This document shows positions 2 to 56,458 of a DNA stretch of 64,000 nt, in pieces. The position numbers and the translations under genes were made by a program. Within the stretch, counting starts at the first letter, position 1, and the number at the start of each line of letters is the position of its first letter. Under the pieces are notes generated by a model, which saw nothing but the letters and a program-made list of their open reading frames with translations, did no database searches and had not been told where the DNA came from. This DNA is from Candidatus Omnitrophota bacterium (GTDB lineage Bacteria > Omnitrophota > Gorgyraeia > 2-01-FULL-45-10): assembly GCA_028699255.1 (NCBI GenBank), contig JAQVUX010000004.1:88668-152667 (forward strand), written 5' to 3'.

Positions 2-505
2 GCGACCCACGATGGGCTGACGGGGCTCTACAATATCCGGCATTTCAACCTTCTTCTCGAAGCCGAACTTAAAAACGTTTCTGTTTATAAAACAAGGCGG
101 CTCGCGATAATTATGGCGGATATTGATAATTTTAAACATATCAACGACACCTACGGCCACCGTTCAGGCGATGTAATGCTGAGGGAGTTCGCGAAGACGA
201 TACAGTCGAAGTGTCGTCGCAACGATATTGTGGCAAGATACGGAGGAGAGGAATTCATAATAATGCTTACCGGCGCCGGCGAGAAGGAAGCGTTTGAGGT
301 AGCTGAAAAGATACGCGAGGCCGTACAGGATAGGAAGATAAAATTTAAAAATAAAGTGCTCAGTACAACTATGAGCCTGGGCGCGGCCGAATTTTCGGGC
401 GAACGCGACAGGGAAGATCTCATCGAAAAAGCCGACAGCGCTCTTTATAAAGCTAAGAGCGAAGGCAAAAACCGCGTATATCTATATTCCGCAATAAGTC
501 GATAG
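2..505 (+). CDS. GGDEF-domain diguanylate cyclase; 5' end lies outside the window
   Basis: Frame continues from the window edge. Motifs D-x-LTGL-N-R and RYGGEEF (the GGEEF active site) are present, as is the C-terminal NRVY. Confidence 0.8.
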   Translation, partial: ATHDGLTGLYNIRHFNLLLEAELKNVSVYKTRRLAIIMADIDNFKHINDTYGHRSGDVMLREFAKTIQSKCRRNDIVARYGGEEFIIMLTGAGEKEAFEVAEKIREAVQDRKIKFKNKVLSTTMSLGAAEFSGERDREDLIEKADSALYKAKSEGKNRVYLYSAISR

Positions 506-5175: not shown

Positions 5176-5531
5176 TCCCCTGTAGCTCAGTCGGTAGAGC
5201 ATCTGGCTGTGCACGAGCGAAGCGCCGAGTGCAAAACTCGGCGTACAGCGCCTAAAGTTAGCAGCCTGCGACGGAAACGTCGCGGTGAAAAGCGAGTAAA
5301 TTCAGGGAAATCCGTCAATGTATAATTGGCGGGCTATCCTGAGCCAAGCCTCACAATTGTGGGGAAGGTGCAGAGACTAGAGACTCGCTACCTAAGTCCT
5401 TTCGTCATTGCGAGGCCCGAAGGGCCGAAGCAATCTCAAGGGATATGGTAATGGTATAGTCCGACTCTCCGGGTAACCGGAGTCAGATCGTAACCAGAGT
5501 GTCCGAGGTTCGAGTCCTCGCGGGGGAGCCA
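5176..5531 (+). tRNA. tRNA-Asn(GUU) interrupted by a group I intron; exons 5176-5210 and 5491-5531, CCA encoded
   Basis: The exons give the acceptor stem TCCCCTG/CGGGGGA, discriminator G73, D-arm GCTC-AGTCGGTA-GAGC and anticodon stem TCTGG/CCAGA. The anticodon loop CUGU|UAA and T-arm CGAGG-TTCGAGT-CCTCG follow. The spliced sequence is near-identical in layout to E. coli tRNA-Asn. Confidence 0.8.
5211..5490 (+). ncRNA. Group I intron in the tRNA-Asn anticodon loop, 280 nt, no ORF
   Basis: The intron follows a U and ends in G. It contains R-like CAGAGACTA, S-like TATAGTCC and P-like AATTCAGGGAAAT elements, and a P9-like hairpin CCGGGTAACCGG. Confidence 0.7.
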
Positions 5532-18165: not shown

Positions 18166-18326
18166 TAGAAATAACCGCGTAGGTTATTTGAGTGAATGAT
18201 AGCGGGATAACCGCGTAGGTTATTTGAGTAAAATAACTGGCCAACCTACGCGGTTGGAGGGGTGTTGGTGTCAGATAACCGCGTAGGTTATTTGACGGTA
18301 AGCGCCTGTACAACCTACGCGGTTGG
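18166..18326. repeat. Array of five short palindromic elements (three ATAACCGCGTAGGTTAT, two CCAACCTACGCGGTTGG) in a divergent intergenic region
   Basis: Direct and inverted copies alternate, so the array can fold into two long hairpins. The same 13-mer recurs at 46438-46487 and 46898-46947. Confidence 0.7.
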
Positions 18327-18392
18327 GGTGGTGTTTTAATCTTGCGAACAGTTTTTGTTTAATGTAAAATTGAATGCTTCGAGAGGTGCTAT

Positions 18393-24091: not shown

Positions 24092-24126
24092 GGGGCGCCC
24101 TCAAAAATATGTGCGGCGCCCCTTTT
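24092..24126 (+). terminator. Intrinsic terminator
   Basis: GGGGCGCC/GGCGCCCC stem followed by TTTTGAG. Confidence 0.55.
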
Positions 24127-24300
24127 GAGTTAGATATGATAACCCCGCCGGGAGTGAAAAAAAGGGCGGGGCGATTGCCTGAGTTAGATATGATAACCCC
24201 GCCGGGAGTGAAAAAAAGGGCGGGGCGATTGCCTGAGTTAGATATGATAACCCCGCCGGGAGTGAAAAAAAGGGCGGGGCGATTGCCTGAGTTAGATAAC
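24127..24300. repeat. About 3.2 tandem copies of a 54-bp unit, each with a CCCCGCC/GGCGGGG hairpin and A-rich loop
   Basis: The units at 24127, 24181 and 24235 are identical. They lie immediately upstream of the lrp start. Confidence 0.8.
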
Positions 24301-45796: not shown

Positions 45797-46244
45797 GGGG
45801 GTGAAAGGTATCGACTCAGATACGCAGAGCACAAGCAGCATGTAGAGGTTGCTAGGAGGCCTCTTGGCGCAAGCCATTCCTACGGTAACGTGGGGATAAA
45901 ACACCTGGCAAAAAATCAAATGCTGAAAACGTAAAAGTTCCAGCAACGGTGAACGAACTCCTAAGCACCATGCAAGTGGTGCCGGGGCCAGTTCTACCGG
46001 TAGCGTTACCTTTATAAGGTAACCCGTCAGCCGGCCTATTTCCGCGGGGCCGGGTCTGGCGACACTAGCGGGATAGTCCGACGGTGTTTAGCCTTTGGCG
46101 CTTTCGGGCGAAGCTTTCAAAGGATACCTTTTCGAAATTCCGCCTACTGAAGTTCGAAAGGGGAAATTAAAGAGCAGGATAAACATGTAGCGGCTTATGT
46201 TTTGATGTTTGAGGACGGCGGTTCAAATCCGCCCACCTCCACCA
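45797..46244 (+). ncRNA. ssrA: tmRNA (ssrA), about 448 nt, CCA encoded
   Basis: Lies immediately downstream of smpB. The 5' GGGGGUG...GGUAUCGAC pairs with a 3' tRNA-like end: T-arm GGCGG-UUCAAAU-CCGCC, then CACCUCC-A-CCA. The tag reading frame could not be read confidently by eye. Confidence 0.7.
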
Positions 46245-46496: not shown

Positions 46497-46556
46497 TTAG
46501 CGGGGCAATAGATACACAGTTGGGCGGAAGTGGCCCGCCTTCGCAATCAAGGCTTA
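46497..46556 (+). pseudogene. Partial duplicate of the tRNA-Leu upstream region plus the first ~12 nt of the tRNA, fused to a TIR-like sequence GGCCCGCCTTCGCAATCAAGGC
   Basis: GCGGGGCAATAGATACACAGTTGG|GCGGAAGTGGC matches 46574-46609 upstream of and into the real tRNA-Leu. Confidence 0.6.
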
Positions 46557-46597
46557 ATATGTTCGATGCTTTGGCGGGGCAAGAGATATACAGTTGG

Positions 46598-53092: not shown

Positions 53093-53103
53093 TATGATAT
53101 AAT

Positions 53104-53176
53104 CGGGGCGTAGCGCATCCCGCCCGGAAGCTGACAGGGGGCGGGACCCCGCCTTGAGTAAAACAGATGGCGGGGG
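53104..53176 (+). repeat. Pseudo-leader module X1: first 14 nt of tRNA-Pro fused to a conserved double GC-clamp hairpin core
   Basis: CGGGGCGTAGCGCA is followed by TCCCGCCCGGAAGCTGACAGGGGGCGGGACCCCGCCTTGAGTAAAACAGATGGCGGGG. A TATAAT-like sequence lies immediately upstream. Confidence 0.75.
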
Positions 53177-53216
53177 CTGGCTAATAACCGGTAGTCGTGT
53201 AGATATTTGTAATTTT

Positions 53217-53336: not shown

Positions 53337-53520
53337 CGTCCCTGTAGCTTCCCGCCCGGAAGCTGACAGGGGGCGGGACCCCGCCTTGAGTAAAACAGAT
53401 GGCGGGGCAGTTGGATATTGATTAACAACGTCCCTGTAGCTTCCCGCCCGGAAGCTGACAGGGGGCGGGACCCCGCCTTGAGTAAAACAGATGGCGGGGC
53501 AGTTGGATATTGATTAACAA
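53337..53520 (+). repeat. Two identical 92-bp pseudo-leader modules X2/X3: first 14 nt of tRNA-Arg, the same double-hairpin core, and a 21-nt spacer
   Basis: The units at 53337-53428 and 53429-53520 are identical. Each begins CGTCCCTGTAGCT as the real tRNA does at 53521. Confidence 0.8.
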
Positions 53521-53521
53521 C

Positions 53522-53893
53522 GTCCCTGTAGCTCAGTTGGATAGAGCATCTGCCTTCAATAGGAGCGTCTATGCGGAATATGAACGCATAGAATGAATGC
53601 AGCTATATGCAAGGAACCCCTGTCATACACAGGGCAATTTGCAGGCAACCAAGCGAGCTACAGATAAATCGGTCCATGGGAAGGAGGTGAAGATTGCAAC
53701 ATTAATAACCAAAATCTTCACGTTAAATGGGCCGACGATTATCTGAAGCTCGAATGGGAGTCCTCAGAGACTATACGCTGCACACCTGAAATGGTGAAGA
53801 CATAGTCCAGACCGCAACGTAACAACGGCCGGAGTAATCCGGTGCGGTAAGCTAAGCAGAGGGTCGCCTGTTCGAATCAGGCCAGGGACGCCA
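53522..53893 (+). tRNA. tRNA-Arg(UCU) interrupted by a group I intron; exons 53522-53556 and 53852-53893, CCA encoded
   Basis: The exons give acceptor GTCCCTG/CAGGGAC and G73. The D-arm GCTC-AGTTGGATA-GAGC is identical to that of E. coli argU. The anticodon stem is TCTGC/GCAGA, the loop is CUU|CUAA, and the T-arm is GCCTG-TTCGAAT-CAGGC. Confidence 0.7.
53557..53851 (+). ncRNA. Group I intron in the tRNA-Arg anticodon loop, 295 nt, no ORF
   Basis: Follows a U and ends in G. It contains R-like CAGAGACTA, S-like GACATAGTCC and a P9-like CCGGAGTAATCCGG hairpin. It resembles the tRNA-Asn intron. Confidence 0.65.
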
Positions 53894-56252: not shown

Positions 56253-56319
56253 CTTATATTGACACCATATCTCTCGAGGCTTATAATTAACATAAATAAG
56301 CTATATTCCTTTGGCTACA

Positions 56320-56456
56320 TATAAAAGGAAGCGGGGGAACCAAGCCACGGTCTACGATAGATCTTGGGGCGAATATCTAAAATATCTACAATGTAGTAGA
56401 TTAGGGTCACTCAACCCGAGCCCGACAGCTAACCCCGTAAGCTAACATGAGAGAAT
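56320..56456 (+). promoter_or_regulatory. Candidate c-di-AMP riboswitch (ydaO/kimA class) in the kdp leader
   Basis: GCGGGGGAACCA, UUGGGGCGAAUAUC, and GGGUCACUCAACCCGAGCCCGACAGCUAACCCCGUAAGC resemble conserved ydaO-motif segments as recalled from memory. An intrinsic terminator follows. Confidence 0.55.
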
Positions 56457-56458
56457 GC

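Follow-up and report, generated by a model that had tools for sequence, protein, structure and literature searches.

The window, by which we mean the whole stretch of 64,000 nucleotides analysed here, contains a tRNA-Arg(UCU) gene that is split by an insert in its anticodon loop and followed by a small GIY-YIG gene. When introns were allowed, ARAGORN returned a single tRNA-Arg(tct) at 53522-53893 with a 295-nt intron (gcctt-intron-ctaag), in agreement with the initial annotation, which had placed an insert of this length after a U and had it end in G. The 5′ half ends in ...CUGCCUU and, after the 295 nt, the gene resumes with CUAAGCAGA... and runs to the CCA. Once joined, the exons give the tRNA-Arg(UCU) with G73 that had been proposed; ARAGORN predicts it to be 77 nt long, with a perfect cloverleaf and an encoded CCA. 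Over nt 4-70 it is 83.6% identical to annotated E. coli tRNA-Arg genes. In its default mode ARAGORN did not call the interrupted gene in the window, and a gathering-mode Rfam scan of the window reported neither the gene nor its intron. For annotation this means that standard tRNA finders overlook this gene, and the genome would consequently seem to have no AGA decoder. AGA accounts for 55 of the 291 arginine codons in 14 ORFs of the window. A codon this common would call for a working tRNA-Arg(UCU), which argues indirectly for splicing of the intron.

The insert is a genuine group I intron. The model RF00028, with which the initial annotation had proposed to check it, found the intron at 53546-53825 in a local search (E = 5e-10), although the score of 44.8 bits stays under the curated cut-off of 50. 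The score falls short because of a 102-nt insertion in P6 and because the seed of the model contains no bacterial sequences (Williams 2020, bioRxiv 10.1101/2020.01.27.920355). The resulting alignment sets P1, P3, P4, P5, P6 (with 102 unaligned bases), P7, P3′ and P8. We also built a covariance model, R1, from an alignment (A1) of 20 compact tRNA-Arg(UCU) introns, with the window left out. The window intron scored 173.2 bits with R1 (E = 2.6e-51), the match covering model positions 1-230 of 230, with one 102-nt insertion, located in the P6 loop. Three non-canonical pairs were flagged in this full-length match, and every core helix pairs. Between them, the two models place the complete core (P3-P4-P6 and P7-P3′-P8), J8/7 and the P3/P7 pseudoknot, so that RF00028, R1 and ARAGORN together confirm the group I intron that had been claimed for tRNA-Arg(UCU) at position 34/35 (Table 1).

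Table 1. Features of the interrupted tRNA-Arg(UCU) gene, its intron and the downstream gene (positions in the window; R1, covariance model described in the text).
Feature	Position	Strand	Details	Basis
tRNA-Arg(UCU) 5′ exon	53522..53556	+	tRNA nt 1-34; last base U34 = intron U-1	ARAGORN with introns allowed, sequence
P1	53554..53565	+	exon CUU + intron c (53554-53557) / GGAG (53562-53565), loop AAUA, U-1.G wobble	hand pairing
Group I intron, 295 nt	53557..53851	+	at anticodon-loop 34/35; final base omega-G 53851	RF00028, R1
Possible 3-bp P10	53560-53562 / 3′ exon	+	uag / CUA of 3′ exon	hand pairing
P2 hairpin	53568..53592	+	TCTATGCG / CGCATAGA	R1; compensatory changes in 8/9 pairs (homologues)
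P3	53598..53603 / 53777-53782	+	TGCAGC / GCTGCA	R1; 5/6 pairs covary
P4 around P5	53608..53643	+	P4 TGCAAG / TTTGCA; P5 CCCTGT 53618-53623 / ACAGGG 53629-53634	R1, homologue alignment
P6	53644..53763	+	GGC 53644-53646 / TCC 53761-53763; loop extension ~100-110 nt	R1
PD-(D/E)XK homing-endonuclease gene remnant	53683..53805	+		MAFFT, translations, PF11645 on intact relative, tblastn
P7	53769-53774 / 53802-53807	+	GACTAT / ATAGTC	RF00028, R1; invariant in 55/55
P8	53783-53786 / 53793-53796	+	CACC / GGTG; inside P7, beside P3 3′ strand	
J8/7	inside P7 span 53769..53807	+	AAGAC	RF00028, R1
P9 around P9a and P9b	53811..53848	+	P9 ACCGCA / TGCGGT; P9a 53818-53827; P9b CCGG AGTAAT CCGG 53829-53842	P9, P9a, P9b all covary
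tRNA-Arg(UCU) 3′ exon	53852..53893	+	tRNA nt 35-76, CCA encoded	ARAGORN
GIY-YIG ORF, 81 aa	54054-54299		160 nt past tRNA-Arg CCA	

Conservation of the fold was examined on an alignment (A3) of the 55 full-length R1 matches, with the split matches of long endonuclease-bearing introns left out. In this alignment 97.8% of the cells of P1-P9 and the P3/P7 pseudoknot are paired, a percentage that is inflated by the fitting of A3 to the model. Changes occur on both sides in 39 of the 59 pairs, and the covariation score is 0.46. Shuffles score 0.14 (none of 500 reached 0.46), and sliding the partners gives 0.07 at most. RNAalifold, run independently on a plain MAFFT alignment, found 38 of 61 pairs covarying; it cannot draw the P3/P7 pseudoknot, and P7 was added by hand. 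Two further RNAalifold helices were judged spurious and taken out of the consensus structure. The U.G wobble at the splice site is present in all 55 homologues, as is P7 without a change. The window intron has its U-1 in this wobble (CUUc/GGAG) and ends in omega-G; the pattern used in the genome scan described below itself demanded omega-G and a 3′-exon CUAA.

What is established about group I chemistry allows the steps by which the window intron would be removed to be proposed. The precursor would fold into P1-P9, and exogenous guanosine would attack after U-1, whose U.G wobble in the 4-bp P1 is invariant. Omega-G would then dock in P7, and exon ligation would yield a normal tRNA reading AGA. 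Splicing activity of the window intron is thus a prediction from its sequence and fold.

The intron had initially been described as ORF-less. It indeed holds no intact ORF, and that part of the description stands. Its P6 loop, however, contains an internally deleted PD-(D/E)XK homing-endonuclease gene, recognized by MAFFT alignment, by its translations, by PF11645 on an intact relative and by tblastn, and the intron is therefore not simply ORF-less. The relatives' introns at this locus are either clean, at ~200 nt, or ~640 nt long with an ORF in the P6 loop, and MAFFT aligns the whole core. The intact ORF of the longer form encodes ~152 aa of a PD-(D/E)XK protein (PF11645, E = 1.1e-29) and reads through P6′-P7-P3′-P8 to a TAG in J8/7-P7′. 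What remains of its 5′ part in the window is a ribosome-binding site, GGAGGTGA, and the start TTG CAA CAT (53683-53702), followed by TAA. The 3′ part comprises 18 C-terminal non-core codons, NNQNLHVKWADDYLKLEW (53704-53757), which are in frame with the core, and the frame continues through P6′-P7-P3′-P8 to a TAG at 53803-53805. In the MAFFT alignment with the ~640-nt relatives, ~125 internal codons are missing from the window gene. For the remnant, tblastn gave 73% identity over 33 aa (E = 4.6e-12), the last 15 residues of which overlap the conserved ribozyme core. In some phage copies, an HNH gene takes the place of the PD-(D/E)XK gene. The window copy probably represents an intermediate between the ~640-nt form with its intact gene and the clean ~200-nt form, and the pattern agrees with the cycle of invasion and decay that homing-endonuclease genes usually go through. 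A single orthologous site in Omnitrophota-type genomes thus presents all three stages of the cycle: intact endonuclease gene, deleted remnant and clean intron.

A generic core pattern (AGAGACTANACG..GAAGANATAGTCC) run on a viral collection matches any group I intron. Because of this lack of specificity, we scanned the species-representative genome collection with a pattern specific for Arg(UCU), J8/7-P7′-P9 start ... omega-G|CUAA. The J8/7-P7-P9-omegaG|CUAA arrangement was found in at least 120 species-representative genomes, and the matches listed belong to Gammaproteobacteria (Thiodiazotropha, Woeseiaceae and others), Bacillus cereus and other Bacillaceae, Bacteroidota, Omnitrophota, Nitrospiraceae, Elusimicrobiota and a Vibrio. 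At least 127 interrupted tRNA-Arg(UCU) genes were extracted, of which one is that of the window, 11 come from phage contigs and the others from the genome loci; their intron lengths cluster at ~200-230, 285-320 and 600-680 nt. On IMG/VR phage contigs, both exons and the 3′ intron core match the window gene (BLAST), and on several of them ARAGORN finds a tRNA-Arg(tct) interrupted at the same position by an intron. The presence of this intron class in phage-encoded tRNA-Arg(UCU) genes offers a plausible route for its wide spread. In IMG/VR we noted six contigs, and others, with a tRNA-Arg(UCU) of this kind, some of them with an HNH gene. Other phage tRNAs have related introns that share the P9 architecture and have the 3′ junctions G|GTAA, G|TTAA and G|AAAA.

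The gene order rph-rdgB-tRNA-Pro-tRNA-Arg, including the intron, is syntenic in eight relatives (tblastx). These MAGs bear the labels Omnitrophota, Planctomycetia or Elusimicrobia, and their flanking proteins have only 48-60% amino-acid identity to those of the window. Synteny that accompanies such divergent flanking proteins indicates that the intron is old at this locus, and the shared gene order points to an Omnitrophota-type bacterium as its host. The exact RdgB sequence of the window occurs on a single public contig, of 6 kb. Among the matches listed, the nearest introns (84-94% identity) come from Omnitrophota-type MAGs, including the syntenic L232, and those of phages reach ~76%; in their exons, L139 and L232 scarcely differ from the window gene. 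The intron would have occupied the orthologous locus since before the divergence of the Omnitrophota-type lineages. Vertical descent with decay of the endonuclease gene is the course of events that the sequences suggest, and the comparison of descent with repeated homing is one among intron-bearing relatives, as the scan pattern required the intron.

The GIY-YIG gene lies downstream of the tRNA gene and outside the intron, where the initial annotation had put it. Its product is a bare catalytic domain with no DNA-binding domain. From 208 homologues, we examined nine with longer contigs. Two contigs begin too close to the gene for its upstream DNA to be read, namely L252 (P0004, ~50 nt of upstream sequence) and L256. 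At all eight readable independent loci (nine placements, with two genes in L255), the GIY-YIG gene is found 24-262 nt downstream, on the same strand, of an intronless tRNA or tmRNA gene. These upstream RNA genes are tRNA-Arg(CCG), Val, Asp, Met, Thr(GGU), Arg(UCG), Gly and Ile, and one tmRNA. A repeat of the final 17 nt of tRNA-Asp follows the GIY-YIG gene in L255. Since the placements are all beside intronless tRNA or tmRNA genes, the link of the GIY-YIG genes is to the 3′ ends of such genes and not to the intron.

In several of the spacers between RNA gene and GIY-YIG gene, (T)CCGCCTTCGC... follows directly on the CCA and ...GCGAAGGCGG forms the end. The segment 53894-54040 of the window, directly after the tRNA-Arg CCA, is one of these leaders and forms an imperfect inverted repeat with 43-nt arms that are 81% complementary (TCCGCCTTCGCATTCAAGGC ... 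GCGAAGGCGGGCC); it has no match in Rfam. Homologous inverted-repeat leaders precede GIY-YIG genes at four other loci, and one occurs in L247 without a GIY-YIG gene. The left arm of the window repeat resembles the insert of a partial tRNA-Leu copy described below. Judged from their sequences and placements, the GIY-YIG genes and their leaders look like a family of small mobile cassettes at tRNA and tmRNA 3′ ends. The searchable literature gave nothing specific on bacterial GIY-YIG genes 3′ of tRNA genes, which is no proof of novelty. A conceptual precedent is SegB of phages T4 and T6, encoded by a GIY-YIG gene within a tRNA cluster, where it drives tandem amplification.

Directly upstream of tRNA-Arg, positions 53337-53520 are occupied by two identical 92-nt units. 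In each unit, a 57-nt double-hairpin insert separates tRNA nt 1-12 from nt 13-21, and an 11-nt spacer follows. The 57-nt element (TCCCGCCC..GGGCGGGACCCCGCC..GGCGGGG) also sits inside a partial 5′ copy of tRNA-Pro (53103-53196), which makes three occurrences in the window. The tRNA-Leu gene (46598) likewise has a partial 5′ copy (46524-46597), with a different hairpin insert. Partial tRNA copies are found beside intact genes at nine other loci, loci of relatives included; 
the copies comprise either the 5′ part (nt 1-11..21) or the 3′ part from the T-loop to the CCA, and their inserts are small, GC-rich hairpins. In a metagenome scan, the 57-nt element was present at 10 loci, nearly always within partial 5′ (D-arm) or 3′ (T-loop) tRNA duplicates beside intact genes, and at two non-tRNA sites the target is partly duplicated too. 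The element is absent from the relatives' loci that were retrieved, save at the broken end of L001. Neither a target-site duplication nor integrase att sites fit the succession of nt 1-12, insert, nt 13-21, spacer and intact gene. For partial tRNA duplicates with hairpin inserts, too, the searchable literature gave nothing specific, again without proof of novelty.

A few further observations concern repeats and RNA genes. At ~1200-1410 of the Omnitrophota MAG locus L199, the first 5 nt of tRNA-Pro are apparently replaced, and a 49-nt hairpin unit with CGGGGGCGTG occurs twice just before the gene; either the gene is disrupted or this is one more insert of the hairpin kind. Within the window, 24126-24298 consists of 3.2 perfect tandem copies of a 54-nt unit that has a CCCCGCC..GGGCGGGG hairpin, and 18206-18335 is a 1.9 x 69-nt repeat; both may be further members of the hairpin-element families. 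For the tmRNA at 45797-46244 (149 bits), ARAGORN predicts an unusually long tag peptide (AENVKVPATVNELLSTMQVVPGPVLPVALPL), which may reflect a miscalled resume codon. A c-di-AMP riboswitch (56289-56458, 84 bits) lies upstream of kdpA, an ordinary arrangement.

We read the locus as a tRNA-Arg gene with a predicted self-splicing group I intron of known type, which has long been at its locus and whose endonuclease gene has decayed, and give this reading a probability of about 0.88. The interrupted gene could instead be recent phage or island cargo and not the host's own. The homologous genes on IMG/VR phage contigs would agree with this, as would the ImmA/IrrE and HTH genes and the mobile-looking GIY-YIG gene just downstream. 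Yet the gene order is kept in eight relatives, the exons hardly differ from those of L139 and L232, the nearest introns among the matches listed are those of Omnitrophota-type MAGs and not of phages, and a search of the window for a repeat of the tRNA-Arg 3′ end, the signature of an island, found none; cargo of this kind is extremely unlikely. A dead relic, with an intron that no longer splices and tRNA-Arg(UCU) supplied by another gene, would be consistent with the degraded endonuclease gene, the sub-threshold RF00028 score and a view of the genome confined to the 64-kb window. Against it stand the pairing of all core helices with only three non-canonical pairs flagged by R1, the intact P7 and J8/7, the perfect exon fold and the frequent AGA codons. 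The P6 loop, moreover, is peripheral and holds a whole ORF in presumably functional relatives, and we consider the loss of splicing very unlikely.

The window holds another group I intron, in tRNA-Asn(GUU) (5211-5490, at 35/36; RF00028, 70.5 bits), which belongs to the published Asn.4Ug class. The initial annotation regarded the two introns as apparently related and suggested intron transposition or spread by reverse splicing within this genome, one copy having seeded the other. Both are group I introns in anticodon loops with P7 motifs, and both have CAGAGACTA and ATAGTCC as well as a terminal hairpin with a CCGG stem, all of which are present in the Arg intron (53765-53773, 53802-53808 and CCGG..CCGG at 53829-53842). 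The first two motifs, however, are P7 and invariant across the whole family, and the CCGG hairpins are P9 stems of the ordinary kind, capped by GNRA-like loops, so that features generic to this type of intron imply no special link between the two. The alignment that had been proposed as a check revealed no similarity beyond the core motifs (global alignment, z = 1.3, no better than shuffles). R1 gives the Asn intron 35 bits in a partial match that skips 69 model positions, against 173 for the Arg intron, and RF00028 ranks them in the opposite order (70.5 against 44.8). The introns differ in site (34/35 and 35/36) and in their peripheral helices: in the Arg intron, P6 contains the remnant of the endonuclease gene, P8 is short and P9 has three helices, whereas in the Asn intron the P2 region and P8 are both long and P9 is a single hairpin. 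These differences leave spread within the genome unsupported. Distant relatives, moreover, have full-length homologues of the Arg intron at the orthologous locus, and it was hence not recently seeded from the Asn intron; Asn.4Ug and Arg.3Ug are also separate published classes. We assign sister copies a next to negligible probability. Asn(GUU) introns at 35/36 are reported to be rare outside Patescibacteria (Nakagawa 2026, PMC13011429). The free-standing GIY-YIG protein, finally, might act in trans as the homing endonuclease of the endonuclease-less intron, a collaborative homing of the kind known from T4 mobE/I-TevIII, and trans-homing has a precedent (PMC2790892). Its gene is 160 nt from the interrupted tRNA-Arg, and small GIY-YIG genes also occur near the tRNA-Pro/Arg cluster in L155, L154 and, in two copies, L199. 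The placements beside intronless genes at all eight independent loci speak against such a role, as do the intron family's own endonuclease gene, which is of the PD-(D/E)XK type, and the small size of a protein that consists of the catalytic domain only, and its probability is accordingly very low.

More tentatively, in a reading that we consider less likely than not, miniature GIY-YIG cassettes (~80 aa, often with the CCGCCTTCGC...GCGAAGGCGG leader) may home to tRNA and tmRNA 3′ ends across phyla. Their breaks, together with REP-like double-hairpin elements, could explain the hairpin-bearing partial tRNA duplicates, and the same nuclease could in principle mobilise the intron. If this is true, the tRNA-Arg locus would reveal something undescribed, though the intron itself is ordinary. 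The GIY-YIG cassettes 3′ of tRNA and tmRNA genes and the hairpin-bearing partial tRNA duplicates may merit a study of their own.

The preferred reading, that of an ordinary intron long resident at its locus, can be set against the known classes. The settings of bacterial tRNA group I introns were extended from 4 to 21 by Williams 2020 (bioRxiv 10.1101/2020.01.27.920355), whose seed alignment contains Rba190.Arg.3Ug, with the P1 CUUC AAUA GGAG, and also Pam37.Asn.4Ug. In 4,934 complete genomes, Nakagawa et al. 2026 (PMC13011429) counted 333 tRNA group I introns, including tRNA-Arg(UCU) introns with PD-(D/E)XK endonuclease genes, for which Bacteroidota and Campylobacterota are named, and Asn(GUU) introns at 35/36. 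In the literature, the classical bacterial tRNA introns are given as IC3, and IC introns as 81% of tRNA introns.

With Arg.3Ug the window intron shares the host tRNA-Arg(UCU) and the site U34|C35 (34/35; ARAGORN), the P1 CUUC-AAUA-GGAG of the seed member Rba190.Arg.3Ug and full-length homology (R1), and the PF11645 endonuclease family, which members of the class may have or lack, is also found in P6 of its relatives. It differs from Arg.3Ug introns with an endonuclease gene in that only a deleted remnant is left and in its Omnitrophota-type host. The cyanobacterial and plastid tRNA-Leu(UAA) intron (Leu.3Ug) interrupts a different tRNA. It resembles the window intron in its site, 34/35, and in a short P1 with a U.G pair, and it is compact (~200-300 nt), usually without an ORF and long vertically resident in its lineage. 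The Azoarcus tRNA-Ile(CAU) and Agrobacterium tRNA-Arg(CCU) introns are small bacterial group I ribozymes with P2, a simple P5 and a P9 that has GNRA-type loops. These two (Ile2.5Ug and Arg.5Ug; IC3) are inserted at 36/37, whereas the window intron lies at 34/35. Leu.3Ug, Ile2.5Ug and Arg.5Ug are all listed in Williams 2020 (bioRxiv 10.1101/2020.01.27.920355), and the window intron is a further member of the published class Arg.3Ug, which changes nothing in what is known about group I introns.
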